A DNA stretch of 60,959 nt, taken from Stylophora pistillata (Eukaryota). Positions 12,509 to 50,800 of the stretch are shown here, piece by piece (position 1 is the first letter of the stretch; each line of letters starts with the position of its first letter). Both the position numbers and the translations under genes were made by a program. Below the pieces are notes generated by a model that was not told where the DNA came from, did not search any database, and saw only the letters and a program-made list of their open reading frames with translations. The DNA is taken from assembly GCF_002571385.2 (NCBI RefSeq), contig NW_019217869.1, positions 581,661-642,619 of the forward strand, in the 5' to 3' direction.

Positions 12509-14294
12509 TCCTTTTTTGCGTTCAGTCACAAATCGCCGTCGCGCTGATAGCGCATGCGTAGATTCTATGTAGTGCGCATGCGTTGTAGTATGCTTTGTGA
12601 AAGCACATGGTCGACGAGTAACGAAGGATTGTCTCAAGGTCTTGTTGCAGATTGCGAAAACGATGGAGGGTAACACGCACAAAACACATGCAAACGCATA
12701 CAATTCTCGCGGTAGACCCACACTAAAAGATGTCGGAAGGGGTCGGTCCGCGACGTTTACGAGAGATTAATTTACGAGCGAACCATTACGAGTGAACCTT
12801 TTATCGTGAACGATGCTATAACTCATATCAAATGAACCATCTATAAAAAATCATGCTATATAAAATCGGCTATCTCATGTTAACCTACGTAGGAATCGTC
12901 GTGTGGTTAAACGTGATCGAGAACCCAACAGATTGTCAGTACGGAATCTGAGAAACAAAAGCAGAGATCTGAAGGAGTTTGTCTTCAAACGTATGCGTGC
13001 AAGCATACCGAAGTCTTTCAGGCTTTATTGTTATGTGAAGGTTAGACAACTTAAAAAACATGAATGTAATACTATGAGAATGAGCTTAAATAAAATCCCA
13101 CACTGACATGAAAAGAAAATTTTCTTTAATTGCTCTAGCAAGGTTTATCGAGGGATAATGAAGCTTAAATGTCGAGCAAATCGGTATTTATCATTGTTTA
13201 CCTGTAATAGTTTGATGTGCCTGTACAAAAGTCAGACCCATATATCAAATTATTGTAAATTTAAACTGAGCAGTGATGTGGAGAAGAACCCTAGGCCTGG
13301 TCTTGCTCCAATGTGCATTGACCCCAGCAAAACAATATCAGCCCCGTATGGCCAAGGTAATGGGCTGGTATTTGGACAGAATTCTGGACAAAAATGTGTT
13401 GCGATGAGTTTGTGCTCTTTGATTTACAATAACAAATAAGGAATTCATTCTACCAATGACCTCATGTTAATTACGGATATTGGAAATCAATTGTATTCAG
13501 GCTTGTCTCAATTAACAAGACAATCCCTTTTTTAATGCAGTCAGAATTACCACTGATGCTAAATGTATTTGACGCTGATTATGAACTTCAGTACAGTGAA
13601 AGCTACTCTAGTACTCATCAAGAAGCCACCATAGAAGAATATCAATACTGTTGTCCTTTGCAAAGAGCCTTCGAATCACTTATTGCTGAAAACTACACCA
13701 ATTTTGTATGAACAGTAGGGTGTACTGCTGTTGCCATCTATTGTAATGAACAGTAGGGTGTACTGCTGTTGCCATCTATTGTAATGGTATAAATGAGGGG
13801 TTCAAAATGTTTGATTCTCATGCTAGGGATTCATATGGTAGAAGCCATGCCCAAGCTACATGTGTGCTGCTTGAAGTATTGTCTCTTAGTGACTTAGTAC
13901 ATTATTTTCAGAGTATACATAAGGAGTAATAATTAATGAAGTAGGAACCCTGGTCCGATAGAGATCCTCAGCAGGGAAACATTTTCCTCGCATAAACTTG
14001 ATTTACACATTGTGCGTGTAGAAGATACATCGTCTTTCGTTATTTCTGCCTTTAGCGCACTACATACAGTACTACTGCATACCACAAATTCAGCAGCGAT
14101 TTTTATGATTTCCATCATAGTAAAGAATGGTGAAGAATTGACCTCTTAAGTTTTATTAAGGGCACCAAGATGGACGTGGCAAATGTTTATTTGGAAGGAT
14201 AAGACAAGATTAATTAAATTTTGAAAGTCGCCGCAAACATTGCTAATTCAAACGCACCCCATGAAAGCCCGAGTTCACGCAGTTATGCGTCTAG
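12509..14294 (+). mobile_element. Internally deleted Helitron/Helentron-like element
   Basis: Starts near TC in a T-rich site. Ends in a short hairpin (acgca-gtta-tgcgt, 14277-14290) followed by CTAG and then T. It carries a decayed C76/Herpes_teg_N-like domain of the kind reported in animal Helitrons. No Rep or helicase sequence remains, so the class is inferred. Confidence 0.55.
13158..13929 (+). pseudogene. Decayed ORF: 2A-like peptide followed by a herpesvirus-tegument-type cysteine protease/deubiquitinase (peptidase C76-like)
   Basis: Translates YCKFKLSSDVEKNPRP, then SAPYGQGNGLVFGQNSGQKCVAMSLCSL...VGCTAVAIYC...FKMFDSHARDSYG. It is broken by stops at 13437 and 13709, a frameshift near 13530 and a 38-bp tandem duplication (13708-13783). 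Confidence 0.7.
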
Positions 14295-16238: not shown

Positions 16239-16478
16239 AGTAAAAAGGCTGATAGTTTCTAAAGAAACTGTTTGGGGCTGCGTCAGTGGGGGTAACGAGA
16301 TAATTTGAATGTATCAACAAAGTTGAAATGGTAAATTGGCTACCGTTACGGTTATAAAAGTTGGACGTTTCGAGCGTTAGCCCTTCGTCATTCGCCCCGA
16401 CGAAGGGCTAACGCTCGAAACGTCAGCTTTTATAACCGTAACGGTGGCCAATTTACCATTTCAACTTTGTTGATACAT
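16239..16478. mobile_element. Short Penelope-type retroelement insertion with an inverted partial copy and a minimal hammerhead ribozyme motif
   Basis: 12-bp TSD gtgaatcaaata (16227-16238/16479-16490). ~80-bp inverted arms span 16309-16478. The + strand motif is CCGACGA-a-GGGC-taac-GCTC-GAAA-C-GTC (16397-16424). Confidence 0.8.
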
Positions 16479-17250
16479 GTGAATCAAATATGGTTTTTAC
16501 ACTTCCACTGTTGTTAATGTATCGATAAATGTATACACCGCGTGGTGAAGAAAATTCAAGGAAGCATGTGGGAAAGGTACACAGATCGTAGACACCACCG
16601 AACTTTTCTATTATGATGTACTGATCTGTTGCAATCTTAAAAGGGTTGTAACTTCATTCACATGTACATACAACAATACACTAACAGGGGAAAAGTTTTA
16701 CTCCATGTACTTCAGATTACAACCGGGTGAACCAATCGAATTTAACGGAAGAAACTCGTGGTACTATTTCACAGAGTTGCCTCTTACTCCACCCTGGGCT
16801 AATCACGAAAGTGATTTTGACAGCTGCTTACGTCGTCTTGTTAGTCGCAGCCTGCACGGAAAATATCATAGTTATATACCTGGCGAGGACATGCAAAGAT
16901 TTACGACAGTTCTCATTCAACTATCTTATTATCAATATGGCTGTGGCAGACATTATGGATGTCTGTTTTTCAACGATCATATCTATTTCCTTTTAACTGG
17001 ATTTCTGGCGATGGAGGTAAAGTCTCTTGCAAACTTGCATGTTTCTTTGTGAATAGTTCAGTCGGTCTCTCCATCTCCACGCTAGTGATGTCAGTGGATC
17101 GCTACAAGGCAATGATGCACGTGATGAAAATTCCAATATCCTCAGCAGCAACAAAAAAATTCATAGCCTTGAATTGGATAGTGTCAGTCCTAGTGGGTGC
17201 TCCCTGTCTTTACAAGATGGATACGAGAGAGAGTGAGGGCGGAAATACAA

Positions 17251-17700
17251 TATCAATCAATCAATCAATCAATCAGTCAGTCAATCAACTTTATTTAACG
17301 AAGGTAACACGGGACAGTGCTTCAACTGAGTAACTAGTAGGCCCTCAAACTAAATTTATAAAACAAAGTTAAGTAACAAAATACATGTCGTAAAGAAAGG
17401 AAGTATAAGTGTATGTATGAATAGGACTAACTTTAGTAAAAACTATATTACACTTATAAAAATATTCTTACAATGAATATCAACAAACTATAATTACAAT
17501 AAGAATACAGCTGGGATAGGTCGAGCGAGATGAAGGTTATGAAATGTTGGATTAGCATAAAACCATGAATAAAATTAAGTTTCAGTTATGCTAAAATGAT
17601 CAACGTCATTGTATTTGGTTAAAAAATGTCTATAAATAGCCTTTCTAGATGAGGTTACACATGTTACTTTCTTAAGGTTAACTGAATGGGCAGAGAGATA
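17251..17700 (-). mobile_element. 3' end of a LINE inserted antisense in the GPCR pseudogene
   Basis: The minus strand shows aataaa plus a (TGAT)n tail at 17251-17297 and an ORF2-like C-terminus (KKVTCVTSSRKAIYRHFLTKY). The boundary at the element's 5' end is approximate. Confidence 0.6.
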
Positions 17701-18006: not shown

Positions 18007-18061
18007 GATTCAAGAAAAACTCACTACCTGACTCGTGAATTCCACGTTAAATTTCACTTGA

Positions 18062-18124
<63 letters not shown>

Positions 18125-18165
18125 ACGTGGAATTCACTCGTCAGGCAGTGAATTTTTCTTTAGAA
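18007..18165 (-). repeat. ~150-nt foldback hairpin with a GCGAAGC apex on the minus strand
   Basis: Arms 18012-18084 and 18088-18160 are complementary except for three 2x2 and two single mismatches. Confidence 0.85.
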
Positions 18166-30410: not shown

Positions 30411-32346
30411 ATGTTGAACGAAACTACAAATAATGGTAAGTAAAACTTCGAATGAAATTAAGATATTTAAGTAAGAAATCCATACCTTTTTTTTTATCAT
30501 TTTTTACGAACAACCCTAAATACAAAATACAGTGGGGTAGGGAATGATACCATAGACTCAAAGATGTCATAGCGCGTTAAAATTTTGAAATTTATTTTGT
30601 TTTCAATCTTAGTTAATCTCACTGTCTAAAACGAATGAGTGGATGATGAAAAACATAGAGCTTTTTTCTTCTCGCATAGCTACTTTATAGAATATCTAAC
30701 TAAAAACGCATGGCAGCTCAATGAGAAAAACAAAATTTTAACCTAATGAAACTCAGCGATGATGGTACAGATTAACATTTTTCTCGACAGTCTTGTTGAG
30801 CACTTATCGTTTCCGACTTTCAAGTTTAAGTCTGAATTAAAGCTGTTAGAAACTGTTTTGATCGGAAATTACCTTGGTCGGATCCTTTGAGAACAGAGAA
30901 GACAATTAGTTACTACGTAAAAAATGGAAAGCCTGTCAAGGCATAATCATGGCTGTGAGAACAAACGTTGGGAAAAAATCAGTTATTCCTCCATATTTAC
31001 CGCACGCACACGTATCATAATCCCCGCAAGAAGGAATCGCTTTGAATTTTGCTCACTTCATCTATATTTTTAGCAGACATTGTATTCAAGATATTCGATT
31101 ATCTTTTATCACTTAATGATGTGTTAATATCTAACACAGGTTTTCGTAACTGAGTTAATTCCATTCAGTTCATTTAACTCTTTCTATACGCTCTGCAGGG
31201 AGTCAAAATGCTTCCTTGGATTCCTCTTGGTATGGATATGACGTTGATGAAGTTCTACAGATAAGTCTCACGGTCGTGTATTCTGTCACATTAATTACAG
31301 CTCTACTTGGTAACATCGCGCTAATCCGCATAATTCGGTTGCGACGTCCTCTGACTAGCGTATCGATTCTTTTATCCAATATGGCAGTTTCGGATCTTCT
31401 CACCGCCTTATTTGCAATGCCCTATACCATCTGTTACTTATATGTGCAACAGGAATGGTTCCCAGGCATCTTTGGCGTTATAACTTGCAAATTTATTAAT
31501 TTTGTCTTCGGCACTACAATTGCTGTATCCATATTTGCACTGTTGACGATTTCCGTGGAAAGATACATGGCAGTTGTGAGGCCCGTGTTGTATCCTTCGT
31601 TCATAAAAAGGCCTCTTTTGTTATCCTCTGTCATATGGGTGTCATCTGCCCTGTTCATGAGTGTTTATCTTTACATTAACGACACATACACTATAGATGG
31701 AGTTACTCTATGTATCTCAGACTGGGAACCGATATTCAGCAACGAGTACAGTCCGAAAATCTTTTTTTCCTCTGTGGCCGCTCTTCTTTACGTCGTGCCA
31801 TTGTTGATCATTGCTTTATTCTCGTGCTTGATTATTAAAAAGCTCAACAAGACAAAGAAAGCTCTCAGCAGCGATCAGCCAGCAGAACACCTGTCTGACA
31901 CTTTCACAAAGCGCCACCAGCGCGTCATGCGAATGTTAATCGTTATCGTAGTGCTGTTTACCGTGTGTTGGCTTCCGGTTCACGTTGTGCACGTCTTGGT
32001 ATACTTCTATGGAGAGATATACATGTCGCTACCGCCATCTCTCCCACTGATCTTATTTTGGGTCTCGCATCTCAATAGCGCCCTTAATCCATGCGTAGTC
32101 ATTCTGTTAAACGATTCGTTTAGAAAAATTTTCAGGGTTATTGTTCAGAGCTTGTGCAGTGGGAAAATCCCAGACTTCAATCATGTACCCTCTTCCCAAA
32201 TTGGCAAAACCTGCAAGGGTGGGTGCTTACCACTCAAAAGAAAAAGACCAAGGACGTACTTGTTTGTTCAGTGGAGCAAGAGGGATAACGCGACACCAGT
32301 TACCGTTGTTGATGTCAGACATGAAGAGAACATTGCCAGTTATTGA
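30411..32346 (+). CDS. Class A GPCR, neuropeptide-receptor-like (GPCR-3); exons 30411-30435 and 31199-32346, ~390 aa
   Basis: Micro-exon ATG TTG AAC GAA ACT ACA AAT AAT G|gtaagt splices in phase 1 to ctgcag|GG, giving MLNETTNNGSQNASLDS. Motifs: GN, MAVSD, CK, ERY, CWLP, SHLNSALNP. Confidence 0.9.
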
Positions 32347-33649: not shown

Positions 33650-35995
33650 TCAAACTACAGTATCACTCTCATGATACCTGTCCTCCATTGTACTTCCTTG
33701 TTTACTTCCAAGAAGTGTAATGCGAGAGGCGGTGGCACTTCCGCTTATGGCCTCTGCTCTTGTGAAAGACAAGCGATCACTTCCGTTAGAAAGACGTCCA
33801 CTGAGCCTGTGATAAATCTGATGCTTGAATCCTTCGCGAAAAATCTCGTTGAATATGAAATAAAGGCACGGGTTGATAGCAGTGTTGGCATGCGTCAAAA
33901 AGAAAAAAGTTAGAATTAACGAAGTCGGTAAACAACTGAAGGCTCCAAAGTTGAACGTCAACAGGAAGTGATTGACGTGCGCTGGAAGCCAACATAGGGC
34001 GAAAAGTATTACTATGGTGACTAACATAGAAATCACTTTGCGTTTCTGTCTCTCGATTCGTTTTTGGTTTTTGTCGATGTGCTCGCCAGGTGCCTTTCTT
34101 CTCCACATATGCAGCACAATCTTTGAATACAGTACGGCCATGGCGAGAAGTGGAATGAGGTAGAACAGGACAAACCGGGCAATCATCTCATACAGTGATA
34201 TTTTATGAGAGGCGAGAAGATCGTCCACCCATCTAGGACCGCAGATTACTTGACCTGACTCATTGTAAAGCTTGTACTTGTAAAGTTCACTTGAAAACAC
34301 TAGGCTCGAAATGAGCCAAGTCAAGGTAATTGCCACGATTGTCAGTTTAAAAGACAGAGGCCTCTTCATCAGGTGCACAATTGCTAGATAGCGGTCAAAG
34401 GTCATAACTGTCAACGTCAGGACAGATGAACCGATGGAAATGAAGGCAAGGAATGGCAAAAATTTGCAGAGGAAAATACCAAAATTCCCTGGAAACCACT
34501 TTGCGCTTTCATACAAGTACACCAGGGACAATGGGATGGCAGTAATGACGTCTAGAATGTCGGCGGTAGCCATGTTGACTATTAGCATATTGAAGGTCGT
34601 TCGGCATTTTGGGTGACGGTGGATAACAAAAATGATCATTGAATTGCCTACCAAAGCCACAAGGAACACAATGAAATAGGCGATGGTCAAACCAACTTGA
34701 GTTGAGAATGTGGTGGGTTTCGGTACACAGTATAACACTGAATCACCAGACCCGTTGACTCTAGTTTCTAAAAGGATAACAAATGAACCAATTAGGGGGC
34801 GTTAACGGACAACTATTTTCGGTTGCGTCTGTGGTGAACGATTTGTACCGGGACAATGAAAAAAAGGTTAGGCTGTTTTGACGTCAGTTGTTCTACTAAA
34901 GAATAACATGGCTAGTCACATCGTGGTACTTAAGTCGAAAGTCGTCAGCGGTCACAACACTCTCTGAAACGTATATAGCGGAAGTTAACCTCTTCACTGG
35001 GTAGAGCCAGTGGCTGAAGCATTTCGCTAGAAAGGGGGATTAAGAAATTACAAAACTTAAGTTTCTTTGAGTTCGTGAAAAGTTGCTTTCAAGATTAATA
35101 CAAAGAAACCGCATTTCAACAAAAAGCAATTAATAAAAAAATACTTTTAACATCATGTTTTTTCAAAGGGTCCTTATCTGAAGCTTTAAGTTAGTGTCTC
35201 GGTTTCTTTATTAACAAAAGAGACTTCCTGAGATCGATCATCACAGGCGACAGCTTAAATGAGATCCTATGTTGTTCATTTTGTTGTTCGCACTCAGCTG
35301 CGTAGCTTTGTCTTGATGCAAGTTTCTCTTTGTTAAGTTCCTTAGTGGTAATTCGAAATAGTAATCTTCTCCGAACACACTATCTTTGAAAAAAGTTCTC
35401 CTTAGAGAAAACTAAGAGGAGGGATCCCCATATGATATGCCTTTATCAAAGGAGGAACTCTACATTTTCAAACGAAAGTAGCTGTGAAGATGTCTCTTAG
35501 CACGAATCATTGGGACTGTTACATTTCCATCAAACACATGCTAGCAGAAATCTCAAGCGAGACTTAAAAATTTTACTAGAGCTTGTGATGACCCCCTAAA
35601 TATCAAATTCGATGCTTCAAACATCTCCTATGATTTTGCCTGGAATCAGACAAGTACTACATTTCATGCTCAATCCATCTCAAGATTATTTTCTTTCTTT
35701 TAGTAGCTCGGCGATGTAATACCCAGTTAGAGCAAAAATTAATGAATTGTTTTGCTTCGTGGTTTCAAAATAAGTTTTTCGGACTGCCGCCAACATACAC
35801 CAAAAAATGAAAAACTCCTGGGAACCATCGGAAATTTATATTTGCAAATGAAATCTTTATCAGCTGTGTTGATGAAAGATAAGGAATATATCCACTTAAG
35901 CTGGTCTCTGGACGGGAAGGAGACAACCGCACAGATATACCCGAACAGAAAAATCAAGAATGATGGAAGTACTTACCAGTGTAGTTGGTCGACAT
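33650..35995 (-). CDS. Class A GPCR, neuropeptide-receptor-like (GPCR-4); exons 35995-35977 and 34767-33650, ~378 aa
   Basis: Micro-exon ATG TCG ACC AAC TAC ACT G|gtaagt splices in phase 1 to ttttag|AA, giving MSTNYTETRVNGSGDS. Motifs: GNS, MATAD, CK, DRY, CWLP, HANTAINPCLY. Confidence 0.92.
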
Positions 35996-41387: not shown

Positions 41388-41487
41388 GAAATAATTTGAA
41401 TATATCAACAAAGTTGAAATGGTAAATTGGCCACCGTTACGGTTATAAAAGCTGACGTTTCGAGCGTTAGCCCTTCGTCGGAGCGAA
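41388..41487 (-). mobile_element. Copy of the Penelope-type repeat with a complete minimal hammerhead motif (41451-41487)
   Basis: The minus strand reads ttc-gct-CCGACGA-a-gggc-taac-gctc-GAAA-cGTC-agc. Confidence 0.78.
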
Positions 41488-42866
41488 TCAATTGTTCGAG
41501 TTCGCTATTTTCTTTCTTCCCAACTTTGATTGGCTAGAATCATCTGAGCTCCTTTTCGGTTTATTCATACCTAATTGACGTTTGACAACCAAATCGAAAG
41601 TTTTTACCTGAAGATTTCAACAAACACTGAAAAAAAAAAATCTTGAACCGTGAGCGCAAAGAGTCCGAAGGACTTTACAATTGAAGAACTCTCCCGAATC
41701 AAACGGAGTGAGATAGGGAAGCACTCCCACCACTCCAGACTAAGAGAACTGCTTCCACCACGTGGCATTTTGCCAGTGTCCACGATGATATCAAGAACAG
41801 CTTTAAACCGTCAGACCACGGCATTACCCAGAACTCAAGGTTGAACTAGAATTGAAGCTTTTGTTTCATTTCTACGATTCAAGTGTGCCTTCTTCCTTAA
41901 CTTGAATTTATTTTTGGACGTTTATTGTTATTTTTGGTGATGTATCAAGTGGTTAGCGTTCAGAAATAGCAGGATCACTGTTTTTCTTAACATGCTAGCG
42001 TCCCTCATACTCTTAATCTAATCTCAATATGAAGGAAATCCTGTTTTAGACGTCTTTTATAGTCCGGGACAACTGAGTAAGCTCAGCGTAGTTGTCATTA
42101 TTAGAATTTTGCCTCGAGAGCATTATAAAAAAAAATCATAGATAACCAGGCGTAGTGGTTAAGGTAAGAATCTTCTTTACTCATGTTTGCTACTGTCTAA
42201 CTTTATAAGTGCGACAATTTTCGCATAAAATACAAACGAGGACGGACATATCACTAATGAGGCACCAAATCGGATAGGAGTTACGAAGAACGGAAGTTTC
42301 CGTGTGTGATAAGCCTTTAGCCATCAACATAGGGTATGGGCTCCATCTGTTTTTGTCACGTATGACCTTAGAAGCCGAGATACTCTCAGTTATGGGTAAC
42401 AATACTCTGTGGCATTTAAAATTTTCACCCCCAAGAGAGTCAAGTCCCTCTCCTGCCTACTTCCGATAACCTCTTTCCAGATGCAAAAAAATGCAATTGT
42501 TTTTGCAAAACTTCACCGAGCTCGTCAAAGAACTTAGCAAAAGTTTTAATGAAGAATCATTTCGGAACCAGAAAAGAAAATTAAATGATGATGATGAATT
42601 TTACTTTTAAAAGTGTGAGTGGTGGAAAAGCCTCTGAGCACTTCATTTACATAAATTAATGATATCTGTTGTCATCCATGGTTTAAGATGCTATACATAT
42701 ATCGTGTAGCTCGGCGTTGTAGTTTAGATAGAACGGAAGAAGTGTGAGAAACACAAGGCATCGGAAGTACAGCTTTAAACAAAAATTACATTAGCATCTA
42801 TGATACATAGACAGTTGAAATCTTTTCCTTGACGTGATTAGAGTCAACTAAACAAATTTGAATTCC

Positions 42867-43156
42867 GATATAATGAATATATGAAGTTCATATATTTTGA
42901 ACTGCGGTATTAAATACGTATGATGCACGATCCTTCGCAAATCTGGNNNNNNNNNNNNNTCACGGGTTTATTACGAATCAACTTAACGGCCTGCTCCCAG
43001 TTGGCTTGTTAGCTCAATTGGTAGAGCGCTGCACTAGTATCGCAGAGGTCAGTGGTTCGAATCCCGTACAGGCCTGATTTTTTTCAGGTCTAATTTTCGC
43101 TATTGCATAAATAGCGCTATCAACTGCGAAGGATCGTGCATCATACATAAATTTAT
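42867..43156. mobile_element. tRNA-containing repeat insertion made of two oppositely oriented pieces around a 13-N gap
   Basis: 13-bp TSD aaatttgaattcc (42854-42866/43157-43169). Both pieces match the unit at 47524-47769. Confidence 0.75.
43003..43075 (+). pseudogene. tRNA-Thr(AGT)-like module inside a repeat, probably not a functional tRNA
   Basis: Cloverleaf GGCTTGT/ACAGGCC, D arm GCTC/GAGC, loop CT-AGT-AT, GGTTCGAAT B box and a T7 run just downstream. The T stem and anticodon stem are mispaired. Confidence 0.7.
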
Positions 43157-46100
43157 AAATTTGAATTCCATTGTCATGACATCCGGTGAAGGACCCAAAT
43201 GAATGTATCACAGCATGTTATCAAATTGAAGAGAAAAGTCCACTGTACAGGCCCCTGCAAAGATGCATATAGGTAACTGGGACCGAATAATTTGGCCAGA
43301 ACCGATTTTTCGAAGGTTTTTTTCCAAGTGGAAAAATATCTTTATTTCAGTTCAGTTAGGAAGAACATGAAGTTCTCGACTTTTGCCGATATAACGTGGC
43401 CATCGCGAATTGCCCCAAGGTTTAAGGTAATTACGTGTCCTGGATGTGCCTACACATTCTGGGTGATGTGAGGTCAAACAATTGATATCAGTCAGATTGT
43501 GGTAAAGGTTCTAAAAATTTACGCGAACTTTAATGAAGTACGTACGTCAAGGCTCCTTTTCGTAAAGAGCGCCCTCGGTTTTTATGCATATATTTTTTCA
43601 TTAACGTTGCTTCAAACATGTCTGTACTTAATAGGTGTCGATTACTTCTCATCGTCGGAAATTTCTTGATAAGCTATTAAAAGATCCTAATCAAAAAATA
43701 TATCCGCCACTCGTACCGGGTCACGCTATTTGTTTGAACCAGCTCACTTTTTCACGCAGACATCAATATTTACTGCAAAGATAAGTCGGGTTCATTTATA
43801 GGAACAAATACATACGAAACCCTAATATGTATCTGATAGGTCAGATAACTAACCAAAGCCAATTTGTATAGCAGCCAGGCTCAACACGGAAAAGATGTAG
43901 TGTAACAAGTTGCACTAAAGTTATCTGGAGTAAATTATTTGTATTTAATTTTTCTTTGCGTACGAAATATGTCGGAATTATTCATGATCAGGTGTAAGAG
44001 CTTATTCTTCAGCGTTACCCTTGTAGAGTTTCCTATACATAAGCGAGAAATGAAAACTGGAGCTAGAACACCACACAGTCACCTTTAGGTTGTCAATTTC
44101 GATTTGCATTTTGTCTTTTGCCTTCGCCTAGGATGAAAGTGTAGGAGTTTTGAAGACAAATGCAAATGAGAATTTGATGTGTTCAAGACAATCTCGAGAT
44201 GCTGAACGTCCAGAAGAGTGAGAAAAGGCCGAATTGGCGCCCAAATTTAACAGGAAATACCACTTTTATCGATTAAGAGCCTCATCAATTACTAATATAA
44301 CTTCCTTATTACAGCTGCATCTCCAGTCTAATTTTGCATGGCGGTTTCATCCTAATACATAAAAATTTGCATCACTAAGACAATTTCATTACTCTGATAT
44401 GATGAGGAAGTATCGCCCTTCATAAAAATCTTGTTTTCATAGCCCAGAATCCATTCGACTTTGGACGTCCAACCCACATCGCTGAGTTGTTTATTCAGGC
44501 TCGCTGGAGACTGGAATTTCCATTTCGTGATGTTCAAAATGAAAAAAAAGCTTGATATGTTCTAAAGGCTATGACATGAACGCTTGGAATTCACACTGGA
44601 GACGCAAAACGATATCCTGGAGTAATAAGTTCATGACAGAGGGCTGTTACGTTCACGCATTCGGGTGTTATTGTTTAATATGATTATCACGTTCATTGTA
44701 CAAGATTATGGTTAGGGGTCGACCATTTAACTTTTGAGGGGGGAGGGGTTTTGGGTAAAAAACTGAAGCAGCTCACCATGAGGTGTTTGAGTCTTCTGTC
44801 GGTTGGCACCATGACGTCGCATTGATATAACTAGTGCCCACAGTCGCCGAGGGCCGGGCTTTTTTAAAGAAAATGTCGATAAAGCAAACGAAATGGGTCT
44901 CGCTATAATCATTTGTAGCCCCTGCTAAGAACAGCCAATTTTTTAATAAATGAATAAATTTTGTCTTAGAATTGAAAGTGTTCCCATACCATTTCTTAAA
45001 GTAGCTTCCTAGTTTCCTCGTTAACTCCAATGGGAGCCTCCCCGCCTTCCCTTGAAAAGCAGTGCCAAACCTTAAGCCACCTGATGATACTTTCTGTTTT
45101 AGATAATCGTGATTTATTTCCATGAACGCGGAATTTTTTACGGAACCTGTTCTTATTATGTGTGATTTAAATTTATCTGAGTGCCATTTTTTCAAGACGT
45201 AAACTGGATTGCAGGTGATTCTTCTGCACCATTTAACATCACAGCATGTGCGCTCGGTTGTTACCAATTTGGCATCCTGAACTTCTCTCTGTTCCATAGA
45301 CCACTGAACAAAAACGTGCGCCATTTTTTCGCCGTGTCTTTGTGTGTTTCTCTTTCTGAGATAGACGACCTTCTTATTCACTTGATAAATATGTAATTCT
45401 TGTCGGAAAGATTACGAATTTAATGTGTTACGATGTCCGATGATGTCGTCATGTAACCACTCAATGTCTGTGCGAGTGATCATATTCAACTTACGATAAG
45501 CTATCTGTAGATAAATCCTTAGAGTGTCCATTGGTTATTGTATATAAATTGTATTGTTCACCAAGGGTATTTTTCCTCGACAAATGACTATCACAAGAAA
45601 GCGGTAAACTGGAGGATACGACAGATTAAAACGTTTCCCACCCTTGCGGCCGAGAACCAAAGGAACTTTTCAGGTATTTATTTATTCATTGGAATTTTTG
45701 ATTTCGAAGCATATTCCGTCGACAAAGATCTCACGCAGGAGTCCTAAACTTCTAAGTTTCTTAGTCCATATTGTTTGCTTAGTTACGATGTTCTGATGGA
45801 TACAAAATCATTAAAACAAACATCAAATAAACTCGTTCTCCTGGAAAACCCTACTCCTAAGGCTATAAATCATACCCACGGATCAGAATTGACGCTGCAG
45901 GCCACATGGGGTGACCCGTTCTTATTTACTGAAGAGCTACGTGCTTATGGTGTTTCCGGACAAATACGTACATTTTGCCTGAAATCCGAAATTGCTAACC
46001 TGTTTTAGCTGACTGATTGAAACGATATGCCTCTTAAAAAAGGCACGCAACAGAATGCATTTGACGTATGGTCACCTTTAGAGTATATGTAACTTTATCC

Positions 46101-47523
46101 GCTCATCCGAGCACGATTCAGTACTGCGGTGAAATCAAGCAAGCCGAGTCAGCCTGTTATGTTATGAATTGAGCACAGTCCTCGCGGGACATGATTTAAT
46201 CCCTATCAGAGACAACGCATTTTAACTGGTTGATAACTGAGTGCCGTGTGAATACAAGACAGCTCGTGGAGCCAATCCACTTTTTTTTTTAGAGGTTTTG
46301 CCCTTTGGCTTTCGGTAATCCTCTACCCAGGGAATTGTCTAACTGACGCCACGAGGCGACAACTGTGAGTATTCTTGCAATTGTACTCGGTTGTAAGTCG
46401 CAAGGGCACAAACGGAAGGTTAGATGTTTTTTGGTCACCATGTCGTGCGTATCGTTTAGTACATTAAGGGTGAAGAAAATTGTTTTCTGGCACTGATTTT
46501 ATGGAATATCATGGCTCTGAATTAGCAGTGATCATACAATTGGTACTGACAAGTGGCTCCTTTATCGAGAGATCAAACAGCAGGGATAGTCATAAGGCGT
46601 ATCACACTTAAAAGACGAAAGTTATTGAGCTGTTTAGCAATCTTATCAATCTTCCGTATTGAGCAAAAGTAAGTGATAAATTGATAATTGTTGTTCTGGA
46701 AATTTACATCGCTGAAGGTTACTGCGTGCCAGACGTTTTTCTTGTATTTAGACCCTGCCACGATCAAATTTGCCAGAGATTCGACCGTTTGGATAAGAGT
46801 CATATTTGGTGGTGATCCGATTTTGTTCTTAATTTTTGATTGCTTAGAAAGCGGATGTGGCGGACTTGTGAGAGATATAAACCACGCCGTTTCATTCTTC
46901 ATACTTTACTTGTCAATCGGAACCGCTTGTAGGCCAAAATACCGATGTAATTGCCATACCCGCATGATTAGCTAAATGGTTAGCAAATGAAAAAACAAAG
47001 TAATGCCCTCCATGTGGATATTATCTGACCTCAGCTTAATGGTATTTACTTGAACATTGGAGGGCTCAAGTTTCAAGTTATATTATTGAATTAATGGTCG
47101 GCGAATATAGGAACAACTGTTGAAAAAAATGGAACACGAGTGTTGTTTATATCGTGTTGCTGTGCCGCTTACTGGGACTTCTTTCTTTTCCTGAAATCAA
47201 ACATACATTATACAAATCATTTAAACATTTGGTTTGATTGTATATCAGTTCACTTTGGGATTCTTGAGACAACAACTTTTAAGGAGCCCCATTCATAACC
47301 GAATGGACATTCATAGAGTTTCTGAATGGTTAATAGCGTAACACTGATCAAGACTTCTATGTTTATTATACTGAATGCTTTTCATTTTTTTTGGACCGTT
47401 GGGAAACGGTGGTTAAGTCTTTCATGAATCGTTTGATATAGAAAACTGCATGCGAGGATATATGGATAAGAGGGCTATTAGTCGAATGGGTACAGCGTAA
47501 ATCGTCCTAACTAATGATACACA

Positions 47524-47853
47524 CGTATGATGCACGATTCTTCGCAGTAGATAGCGCTATTTATGCAATAGCGAAAATCAGACCTGAAAAAATCAGGCCT
47601 GTGCGGGATTCGAACCACTGACCTCTGCGATACTAATGCAGCGATCTACCAATAAGCTAACAAGCCAACTGGGAGCAGGCCGTTAAGTTGATCCGTAATA
47701 AACCCGTGATGATAAATCAGATACAATGAATATATGAAGTTCATATATTTTGAACTGCGGTATTAAATACGTATGATACACGATTCTTCGCAGTAGATAG
47801 CGCTATTTATGCAATAGCGAAAATCAGACCTGAAAAAAATCAGGCTTGTACGG
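47524..47853 (-). mobile_element. 1.3 tandem units of a 246-bp tRNA-containing repeat
   Basis: The unit restarts at 47770. The tRNA-like part is 47595-47666 (-). 8-bp TSD gatacaca (47516-47523/47854-47861). Confidence 0.8.
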
Positions 47854-50800
47854 GATACACAGTTGGGACTAGAAATGTATGCAGCATAGTTTAAAACCCT
47901 TCAATGACAAAGACTGGTAAAATTCCATAACAAGATTAGTTGCAGATATCAATTAAATGGTTATTTAATATATCATTTACTACGGTGAAGAATGGAACTT
48001 TGAAATAGAGCTATGAATCTTTATTATCACTTACTTTAATTATTTACATTTTCAAAGAGAGGTTCGTGATTAAAAGTCAGTGCATTCATTAGTGATATGA
48101 CATTTCCCCTTTTTGATGCTCTTGTTGTTTTCAAGTAATAACACATAAGGTAAGGTGCTATACGAAAAAAGCGGCGTCCTTGGACTATTTAGTAGGATAA
48201 TTATCGACAAATATGCGGCGCAAGTAATACTATGTGGGAACAAACTATATTTGACGTTGATCGATCGATCAATTTTTGACATGCACTTTTTAAGCATTAG
48301 CGCGACTCGTAAAGGAGCTGGCATTATGATCCTTTGATCCCTCTCTTTGTTGAATTTTAACTTTGCTCCATCTGAATGGAGCATAAAGATTTCATCTCTT
48401 CCGAAACGTTTTTAAAATGCGTGTATAAATCGCAAAGAGATCATATACGAAAAGATTGTCGATGAATATTAGTGTAATAAAAGTCTCATGAGGTTATTCT
48501 CTTGAGGTAGTTTTCCTTTGTATTCACTGGTAAACAAGTTTAATTGCTGGCTAAATCTCTTGAAATGTATCGTTACTAGAACAGAGGACTGCTTTTCACT
48601 CCCTGTCAGCTCTTTTGTGGTGGCCGATATCCTAATGGCTTTGGTGGTTTTCGTAAACAAAAAAAGTCTTTTAACTCCAGAGTAATTGAAAGTCAATAAA
48701 CCATGGATATCAGTGCTCGTCCATTCTAACCGTACTGATCGCCTCTAGATCAGATGCTTGGTGCACTATGAGTGTAAAAGGTGTGATAGACAGGAAAATT
48801 ACTCTTTTTTTGCAGAGTTAGGACCTACATACAAAATAAAACATAAAGGAAGGGAGGTTAAAGAAGGGAAGAACCTCGACAGCACCAATATTCCCAGAAA
48901 ATGACAAACTCCTCGTTAGCAAATGAAGGTAAGGAAGTTTTAATCTGGTTAAGAGGTTAGGCTTGTCATTTTTAGTCGTAATCCGATTGCTTTGACTTAT
49001 TCTGATGAAACCTTCCCTAGAATCTTTCACTCTAACCAACTGACATGTACATGCGGGAATTTCTTATATGTCTTTGTTTTTCTATATGTTAGAGTTCACC
49101 CTTTTTGCCACCGACATTAAAACACTTAAGTCGCTGATTTGTAAGTAAACTAAGCTTAGATTTGTTTCAAGCGATGTATGCATGACAAACATGAAAAACG
49201 GATAGAATGATTGCTCGATCTAAGTAATTTATAGTATGTCCAGTGACTGAGGTCTTAAGGCAACGCTATATTTCATCTCATTAAAGGCTTTTATTCTCTG
49301 CCAAAAGACTACGTAAATCTGCAATTTTTTTTTCGTCTTTCTCTATATTTAGTCATAGATGGGAGCCGTAAATTTTTAAAATGTCAAACTCATGAAGATT
49401 TGGTCAGCTGAACTGCATAATTTTAAGCTATTCTCAACAGTAATGTCAAAATATTTTCAGAGTAATGTAGACTGGTACGAATTGGTCATAGTGACCGATT
49501 CAATTCGGCAGAGAGCTGAAGGTTCCGCGTTTGCATTAGTGGCATTTAGCCTCAACTTTATAAAGTAATAAAATCTAACTAGAATCTCTAATTATATCAA
49601 CAAATATGTATGATAAAGCAAGCATAGCTGTTAAAGCTTCAGTCTACAAGTTCGCGTGCATGACGTTTGCAATATTGAAAGACTGACCAAATGGACATCG
49701 CAGAATAGCCCCGGGCTGATAAATGTAATATCATTCACATTTATCCGTTCCGATTACTCAACAGCTACAGAGATAAAATAGTGGCAAATGAGCAAACGCA
49801 ATGGTGTGTTGTGCTCCAGGGTATCGGATTGTCTACAGTTGGCATGCATACGAAATGGATCAGAGGTCGTTTCGGTGGATGAACAACTTCAAAGTGTAAA
49901 GACATTCCGCGTGCCGTGGACCTAAAAAGTCCTTTTGTGTGTTTGTTTTATTTACTAATAACTGCTATGACTGCTACCATAACTGCTATAACTGCAGCAA
50001 TTTATCTTCTCTTGTCTGTTTTCTCTTTTCTTTTCAAGTACATTAAAGTGTAAGGAATTAAAAGGAGACTTGATGAGCGCCGTGGGGTAGCTAGGCTGAG
50101 CCTGATGTGTAGGAACGTCGCTCAGAGAAAATCTGACACTTTCTCACACAAAAGTGCGGCTTTATACCATATAATAGAGGTAGAAATAATGATCATCATG
50201 AACATATCGAAAGCTGTAATCCTTACGGTATTAAATTAAGCGTGTAATTTGTGCATTCTGCGAATGATGAGAAGACAGTTTTATGATTTATCATGCTGAT
50301 AGTCATCTATTGTTGAAACCTTTCTGAGCTTCAGCTGACACCAGCAATCCAATATTAATCATCAATCTTACTCATTCAAAGTGACCGTTGCGTGGATAAA
50401 GAAGATCGTGATTAATGCAAATGATTTGATAGTTCCAAATATCAAACCCTCGGACTAAGATCGCAGAAAGACAAAATATATATTATGCAGTTATAACTTG
50501 TGACGATGGTCCATAAATTCCAAAAAGAAAAATATAAGAGCAAAATATTACTTCCGTAATTATCTTATGCGGTCAATACGAGTATATATTCAGGGATATG
50601 GATAGTACAGCTACAAAATGGAGCCCGAAGATATGGGTTATATTTTGCTTGTTGAAACTTCGGCATATCATTATTTAATCAGCCATTATGCTAATAATAG
50701 GGACAATTCCTCCATGGGTTATATCAAGTAGCCCCAGTAGGTTCGTCTAACACGCATGCTTTTGTCAGTTCACGAATTTACCGTTTGAGGAAGAAAGGAA

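Follow-up and report, generated by a model that had tools for sequence, protein, structure and literature searches.

A tRNA-bearing tandem repeat of the coral Stylophora pistillata: probable Penelope-type insertion and a possible use of host tRNA splicing

Introduction

How does a short repeat that carries a tRNA-like module come to be inserted as permuted, inverted or more-than-unit-length copies? The question was raised by two insertions, here called insert A and insert B, in a window of 60,959 nucleotides from the coral Stylophora pistillata (NCBI RefSeq assembly GCF_002571385.2, contig NW_019217869.1, positions 581,661 to 642,619 of the forward strand). The window means this whole stretch, and positions are counted from its first letter. 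An earlier note on the window had proposed a circular or concatemeric RNA template, released as monomers by RNase P or RNase Z at the tRNA boundaries.

The best explanation found here, which as a whole is given an even chance, is that the repeat is copied by the enzyme of a Penelope-like element (PLE) from a probably circular RNA, cut out and closed by host tRNA-splicing enzymes. The parts of this explanation differ in firmness. It is highly probable that the PLE enzyme cuts both target strands, primes inside the RNA at two sites and generates two cDNAs that join variably. A unit-length circle, read by rolling and thereby regenerating multimers, is a probable template. Circle formation through tRNA splicing, which is modelled from predicted folds, would be about an even bet.

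Results

One 24-mer of the repeat gave 7,032 exact matches in the 398-Mb genome and its reversed control gave none. The unit was 247-248 bp long and arranged head-to-tail, with two young subfamilies, alpha1 and alpha2; four more families were obtained from older genome copies and 120 metagenome loci. Unit positions (u) take the initial base of the tRNA module as u1. Fifty-five insertions, chosen blind to structure, were mapped at the first 100 listed matches of the 24-mer (contigs C1 and C2), and a further 43 came from the best-scoring arrays. Among the C1/C2 insertions with both ends free of N (n=43), 27 were head-to-head, 16 one-directional and none tail-to-tail. Gap-free sense 3' ends were concentrated in two windows (71 of 80), with 40 ends at u141-155 and 31 at u184-204, and the two end sites were about 49 nt apart. 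One end of each kind was combined in 23 of the 27 head-to-head copies. The 3' ends adjoined the target-site duplication (TSD) or the flank directly, with no poly-A or simple-repeat tail. Flanking repeats of at least 9 bp, mostly 12-14 bp, were observed at 30 of 41 head-to-head insertions, compared to 3 of 400 mismatched flank pairs. At the N-free junctions between the arms (n=26), 15 overlapped by at least one base and 7 joined at a near-identical unit position, compared to 2.2 expected. Two of the further families showed the same two 3' ends on metagenome contigs, and an independent RNA run contained them too, as loose ends. The inner ends do not follow the start of the second arm, which led to the rejection of classical twin priming; simple fold-back of a single cDNA was rejected because the arm lengths differ independently by whole units. 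Long arrays often touched gaps and were nearly identical, and gap filling may have raised the number of units counted in them. One array (L032:2797-6767) contained 14 identical units among 15 complete ones, with one variant, and ended at an N gap. The module motif was also present in one IMG/VR contig (L394), which is probably host DNA.

The two fixed 3' ends at this spacing, together with the almost strict head-to-head orientation, specifically indicate a PLE enzyme. Purified PLE protein starts reverse transcription internally at two sites, the spacing of which equals the genomic tail; it cuts and extends both target strands, and its insertion in vitro does not require hammerhead cleavage (PMC11167929). 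A tail on one arm, TSDs and head-to-head arms are hallmarks of PLEs (PMC3846280, PMC8557442), and junction palindromes and a TSD length of 8-10 bp are further traits (PMC3846280). The coral genome contains young PLE families of the same design with the GIY-YIG endonuclease. Seventy GIY-YIG loci (30 + 40), taken from 150 listed matches (1,590 candidates), were compared with the unit, and the significant blastn and nhmmer matches in them were inserted copies of the repeat. Judged by its architecture, the repeat is likely copied into DNA by a PLE-type enzyme. As a side observation, several of the young PLE families (L138-L167, L198-L237) had GIY-YIG domains, minimal hammerhead-like cores and head-to-head arms. 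Some young PLE copies were inserted in TA tracts, and two loci (L206, L207) had long open reading frames (ORFs) with reverse transcriptase and endonuclease motifs.

More than one unit was present in 33 of 90 arms, and the two arms of one insertion belonged to the same subfamily in 34 of 34 cases. Private variants common to two arms numbered 9 per 3,675 nt within insertions and 12 per 45,355 nt between insertions, a difference of about ninefold. A single template lineage gave rise to both arms of a head-to-head insertion. This template is circular or multimeric, and the proposal of a circular or concatemeric RNA is supported by the long arms and the shared private variants. None of the 18 gap-free outer 5' ends was within 5 nt of u1, and among 107 true 5' ends two were near u1 and none near u38. 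Exact-end searches over the whole genome gave 22 ends at u1, 14 at u38 and 16 at u74, where the end pattern detects one subfamily only, and no dominant run-off 5' end was found at these three positions. Because no fixed run-off end dominates, a circle and long multimers both fit and are not separated by the ends; the junction of a circle would equal the genomic tandem junction. The unit was present in poly-A libraries (three runs examined). An A box and the B box of the next unit were located in one arm in 12 of 55 insertions, which could be sources of a two-module transcript. The earlier note had also held that the repeat is not an ordinary short interspersed element (SINE), which agrees with the outer 5' ends, the missing tail and the mere 22 exact ends at u1, and had found no ribozyme in the unit. 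In Rfam scans, the window (E<=1) and an 801-bp array stretch (E<=10) likewise yielded no ribozyme, with tRNA as the only match for the unit, and no hammerhead core (CUGANGA) was found on either strand of the unit.

The tRNA-like module was analyzed in a covariation set of 25 distinct real copies, selected as the closest to their family lines. The cells of the cloverleaf were paired in 91%, with two-sided changes at six pairs, whereas slid controls reached 29-45%. The acceptor stem was paired in 97.7% and the D stem in 97.0%, and four of the five pairs of the anticodon stem were formed. The length of the acceptor stem was 7, 8 or about 9-10 bp across the families. From these sequences, the tRNA fold itself looks selected. 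The module is not a decoding tRNA, because positions 31 and 39 never pair, the T stem is broken by two mismatches in the dominant young family, and C33 is found in four families. A and B boxes and a T tract were kept in every family. Folding predicted in each family an upstream segment that pairs with the D arm and/or the T arm. When these masking arms were swapped between families, only the alpha families fitted their own arm best, and a family-specific co-evolution was not shown. The predicted fold of the circle was highly stable, with z values of -4.8 and -5.7.

Bases 32-35 of the anticodon loop were found to be self-complementary, as CCGG, CTGG or CTAG. Positions 33-34 were TA, giving CTAG, in 311 of 314 young modules. 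Of the 29 older modules in this genome, 27 were self-pairing at these positions (16 CG, 6 TG, 5 TA), with C32 and G35 kept. The transcript that was folded began at u1, ended at the second T tract and contained two modules; the beta unit was a rotated real unit and the gamma unit a joined family line. The predicted split fold joins two neighbouring modules: the 5' half of one (n) pairs with the 3' half of the next (n+1), bases 32-35 of the two loops pair, and the intervening 248 nt form a fold of their own in which the D and T arms that they contain are masked. The split fold was the optimum for alpha2 (probability 0.77) and beta (0.99), and within 0.6 kcal/mol of the optimum for alpha1 (0.25) and gamma (0.21). 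Its probability fell to 0.01 or less when positions 33-34 were changed. A C32-G pair with a 3-nt bulge at the 3' site was possible in the predicted split folds of all units folded, the optimal register being one base off in four of five.

A catalytic domain of TSEN, the tRNA-splicing endonuclease, is encoded in the genome. TSEN grips the acceptor stem as well as the D and anticodon arms, with TSEN54 holding the acceptor and D stems, and needs mainly the proximal pair (PMC10485636). This pair is C-G in all Drosophila intronic tRNAs, and C32-G is needed for the splicing of tRNA intronic circular RNAs (PMC6614914). Metazoan tRNA introns of up to about 250 nt become circles (PMC4536317), and RtcB closes retrozyme monomers in vitro (PMC7229834).

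When a search imposed no constraint on the anticodon arm, two other tRNA-bearing repeats, eta and zeta, were obtained. The eta family has a 279-bp unit and 527 matches (L411-L440, L442-L461; e.g. G000:C8:9948-13035), and it resembles alpha in the tRNA module only (72% over 57 nt). It forms tandem arrays and head-to-head pairs with two 3' end sites about 25 nt apart near the T tract, and no hammerhead core was found in its unit. TSDs of 11-13 bp were observed, in a search span wider than that of the chance control, at 11 of 29 eta loci, several of which had been picked for paired hits. The anticodon arm of eta differs from that of alpha, yet CTAG is present at 32-35 and 31-39 is unpaired. Zeta (L397-L405) is an ordinary tRNA-SINE with a single fixed 5' start and no loop palindrome; its acceptor and anticodon stems do not pair and it was used as a control. 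Delta, a family in metagenome contigs (L245, L254, L278, L311, L319, L349), shares the tRNA module, with an 8-bp acceptor stem, but differs in the 3' half; its ends are near u135-145 and u177. The search for further tRNA-bearing families gave, among the first 100 of 138 matches, mostly variants of the families above.

The two insertions of the window are described in Table 1. Insert A is of the typical head-to-head form (u195 + u144) and insert B ends at the main site, which forms its left edge. The strand switch of insert A is probably at about 42939/42940, in called sequence, with the N gap (42947-42959) inside the direct arm; four sequencing runs had no depth over the flanks of insert A and did not bridge the gap. 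The tRNA-like module of insert A scored 48.9 bits, with two mismatches in the T stem and 31-39 unpaired. Insert B consists of two partial copies 246 bp apart, which are 95% alike and have the same rare base at u130 in both passes. At 8 bp, its TSD falls short of the most common length in the family, and 8 of 400 control pairs have at least 8 bp, but it abuts both ends. Neither copy could template a two-module transcript. The structures that the earlier note had read here, about 1.3 head-to-tail units with an internal tRNA-like module in an 8-bp TSD (B) and two pieces of opposite orientation in a 13-bp TSD (A), were all seen in the sequence. Its unit of 246 bp holds as the length in insert B but not for the family. 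Its description of the copies as permuted applies to the 5' ends, which are free, but not to the 3' ends, which are fixed at the family sites u144/u146 and u195. The extra bases of insert A sit between the 3' end of the element and the TSD and are perhaps from repeated priming.

Table 1. Positions of insert A, insert B and their parts in the window
Feature	Position	Strand	Basis
Left TSD of insert A, 13 bp, AAATTTGAATTCC	42854..42866	+	
Inverted arm of insert A, u123-u195; outer end is the second ('tail') 3' end of the family	42867..42939	-	
Seven called bases like u193-198, then 13 N; probably start of the direct arm	42940..42959	+	inferred
Direct arm of insert A, u206-u248 then u1-u144, ending at the main 3' end	42960..43146	+	
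Segment predicted to mask the D and T arms of the tRNA-like module by pairing	42960..43002	+	folding only
tRNA-like module of insert A: A and B boxes, cloverleaf, called Thr-AGT	43003..43075	+	
Anticodon-loop bases 32-35, self-complementary CTAG	43034..43037	+	sequence
T7 tract resembling an RNA polymerase III (Pol III) terminator, in a hairpin loop behind the tRNA module	43078..43084	+	sequence
Ten extra bases of insert A, partly repeating the TSD start	43147..43156	+	
Right TSD of insert A, 13 bp, AAATTTGAATTCC	43157..43169	+	
Left TSD of insert B, 8 bp, GATACACA	47516..47523	+	
Insert B, about 1.3 units, one-directional: starts near u59 and, after a full unit, stops near u146	47524..47853	-	
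tRNA-like module of insert B, decayed: deletion in the D loop, C32>T	47595..47666	-	
Right TSD of insert B, 8 bp, GATACACA	47854..47861	+	

Both inserts lie between single-exon ORFs that resemble G protein-coupled receptors (GPCRs), a label given from reading the translations. A cluster of such ORFs, rhodopsin-type as assigned by eye, was located at 555-1595(-), 9945-11090(+), 16872-17333(+), 31159-32346(+), 33650-34801(-) and 55280-56572(+); the one near 16.5-17.3 kb appears broken. Near-perfect long palindromic repeats, similar to miniature inverted-repeat transposable elements, were present at 16309-16478, 18012-18160 and 4447-4605, with partial copies at 36-117, 12424-12509 and 41388-41488. 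Rfam matches to miRNAs and cis-regulatory elements at these palindromes were below the gathering thresholds. ORF fragments similar to the reverse transcriptase of long interspersed elements (LINEs) were found at 59415-60353(-) and 5119-5718(+).

Discussion

In the proposed route, a transcript holding two modules would be made by RNA polymerase II, or by Pol III if it passes the first T tract. Pairing of the 5' half of module n with the 3' half of module n+1, and of bases 32-35 of both loops as the anticodon-intron helix, would leave the intervening 248 nt to act as an intron with masked D and T arms. TSEN would cut both loops, at 37/38 or 38/39, and RtcB would close the intron into a seamless circle, a job that is done by the hammerhead in retrozymes. 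With one cut per loop, exactly one unit would be freed, its ends ready for RtcB and without a scar, and hence no junction would be visible in the DNA. The PLE reverse transcriptase would copy the circle by rolling, which would give multimers. The PLE endonuclease (GIY-YIG) would cut both target strands, reverse transcription would begin inside the RNA at two sites, and the two cDNAs would join at variable points, often via short homology. For two-module pairing followed by TSEN cuts and RtcB closure, modelled in this way, the chances for and against appear balanced. The broader reading, in which the RNA of a mobile element would be its own tRNA intron and ribozyme-free retrozymes would exist in at least two coral families, is tentative and has slightly less than an even chance.

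Several observations weigh against this explanation. The covariation is underlain by about five lineages only, the pair 31-39 was unpaired in 25 of 25 copies, unlike in normal pre-tRNAs, and the T6-7 tract behind the first module should stop Pol III. The optimal loop-loop helix was 6 bp long with a bulge at 37-39, and not in the canonical 4-bp register. The split-fold probability of alpha1 varied from 0.14 to 0.94 depending on the assumed transcript ends and the temperature, and the split fold of eta was 3 kcal/mol above the optimum, with a probability of 0.11 or less. tRNAs with A34-G35 have CTAG natively, an origin that may also account for the CTAG of eta, so that eta is not fully independent evidence. 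The loop conservation was counted with the exclusion of metagenome matches, for which the search pattern fixed positions 32-38. The tails of the genome's own PLE families are about 32 or 85-100 nt, not 49 nt, and by blastn and nhmmer no PLE among the 70 GIY-YIG loci shares sequence with the start region of the repeat. A TSD of at least 8 bp was observed in just 5 of 26 one-directional inserts. True 5' ends were in excess at u71-77 (14 of 107, about 3 expected), near the RNase Z site; the U tract and a hairpin are also located there. The RNA evidence consists of poly-A contigs, in which neither a circle nor a cut site was seen and which are unable to show strand, ends or circles.

The alternative that survives best keeps the mobilisation by a PLE, with the tRNA module as a Pol III promoter or folding element only and with unprocessed read-through multimers as templates. 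The retained A and B boxes and T tract fit this, the 12 insertions in which a single arm holds an A box and the following B box could be its sources, PLE insertion proceeds in vitro without hammerhead cleavage (PMC11167929), and the variants common to both arms also fit one multimer. A promoter does not need the acceptor and anticodon stems, yet these covary, and they are unpaired in the zeta SINE. The loop palindrome would be unexplained and, without regeneration, 5' truncation should shorten the arrays each round. This alternative is regarded as unlikely.

Release of monomers by RNase P and/or RNase Z at the tRNA boundaries, as first proposed for this locus, was weakened by the results and is now improbable. 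It is in line with the covarying acceptor stem and with the 5'-end excess at u71-77, but the most abundant family has a broken T stem and the acceptor length varies. The exact 5' ends at the P site (u1), the Z site (u74) and position 38 were about equal, with no spike exactly at u1 or u74, and two cuts would split the unit in two. RNase P and RNase Z products have 5'-phosphate and 3'-OH ends, which are not substrates of RtcB and would not be closed by it. The features of the anticodon arm, including its self-complementary loop, would be left unexplained; as far as the predicted folds allow, tRNA splicing would fit the cloverleaf and the loop better.

About equally little probability is given to a palindromic loop that pairs two RNAs, as a kissing-loop signal for dimerisation, or that belongs to an undescribed ribozyme cutting without protein. 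In favour, three families have an anticodon hairpin that stands out from the masked fold with a palindrome of 6 nt, the duplex between two loops is preferred to separate hairpins, and the predicted circle is highly stable. Against it, position 36 has changed to C in two lineages, in which only the 4-bp core remains, both arms derive from one template lineage, the scans gave no Rfam ribozyme or hammerhead core, and the whole cloverleaf is kept.

A tRNA-derived SINE moved by a LINE, with inversions by L1-type twin priming, would have a tRNA-derived module, TSDs and junction microhomology as observed (15 of 26 overlaps), but it is contradicted by the end maps, which give no fixed 5' end and no tail, by a second arm that ends at a fixed site unrelated to the stop of the first, and by the common multimers, and is very improbable. 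As a source of the inversions and multimers, assembly artefacts of a short-read genome are suggested by the N gap in insert A and by the many long, near-identical arrays that touch gaps, but are hardly credible given 26 N-free inversion junctions, TSDs around whole inverted structures and the same orientation in 5 of 5 opposite-strand pairs, all head-to-head, in independent metagenome assemblies.

The coral repeat can be compared with several known systems. Animal non-LTR (long terminal repeat) retrozymes have non-coding tandem units of 150-450 bp, dispersed as monomers to multimers, a stable predicted circle, proposed PLE mobilisation and RtcB circularisation (PMC7229834; bioRxiv 10.64898/2026.07.22.740005; PMC7761336). 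The coral repeat is similar, its circle being predicted, but the type I hammerhead that retrozymes have in each unit was not found in it, it has a covarying cloverleaf and a self-complementary loop, and no sequence link to a PLE pLTR (pseudo-LTR) was found. With the endonuclease-positive (EN+) PLEs and non-autonomous forms such as MRC1 it shares two internal start sites, head-to-head arms, variable 5' ends, junction palindromes, TSDs and head-to-tail multimers (PMC11167929, PMC3846280, PMC8557442). It differs from them in having no ORF and in carrying a tRNA module; tails of 30-40 nt are reported for EN+ PLEs compared to about 49 nt here, and rotifer PLEs have TSDs of 8-10 bp compared to 12-14 bp.

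The tRNA intronic circular RNAs have a cloverleaf with an intron in the anticodon loop, a C32-G proximal pair and a 3-nt bulge (PMC4536317, PMC6614914, PMC10485636). Such a cloverleaf with an intron is predicted for the coral repeat, in whose split folds the pair and the bulge may form. Unlike these, the coral intron would be a mobile element formed by two tandem units with seamless junctions, and the repeat has 31-39 unpaired and C33 in four families. The Schistosoma repeats Sm-alpha and Sj-alpha are tandem retroposons with a Pol III-type promoter that need at least two units to propagate, but they release monomers by a hammerhead (PMC6765202), which was not found in the coral unit. tRNA-SINEs and those terminal-repeat retrotransposons in miniature whose LTR segments derive from small RNAs (Cassandra, Helenus, Ajax) are likewise non-autonomous retroelements with a tRNA-derived internal promoter (PMC10886601), whereas the coral repeat has PLE-type ends and no fixed 5' end, 3' tail or LTR structure.

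Non-autonomous tandem elements driven by PLEs are already known (bioRxiv 10.64898/2026.07.22.740005, PMC7761336), as is the pairing of transcription by Pol III and a hammerhead in the repeats of Schistosoma (PMC6765202). Neither the coral family nor the use of tRNA splicing by a transposon was described in the literature searched, including PMC12070523 and PMC10886601; a consensus may exist in Repbase, Dfam or the subscription papers outside this search. New here are the compensatory changes in the cloverleaf, the self-complementary loop and the predicted pre-tRNA fold with a unit-length intron.

Copies of the repeat inflate the tRNA-Thr gene calls in coral genomes. If the proposed route is true, a mobile element has replaced a ribozyme with the tRNA-splicing pathway of its host, the TSEN of animals has a natural substrate other than tRNA, and circles are made by a compact design, a single unit in two copies. 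Even without the splicing step, thousands of young copies record the start sites of a PLE and the joining of twin arms, and thus document the action of an enzyme that is poorly understood.

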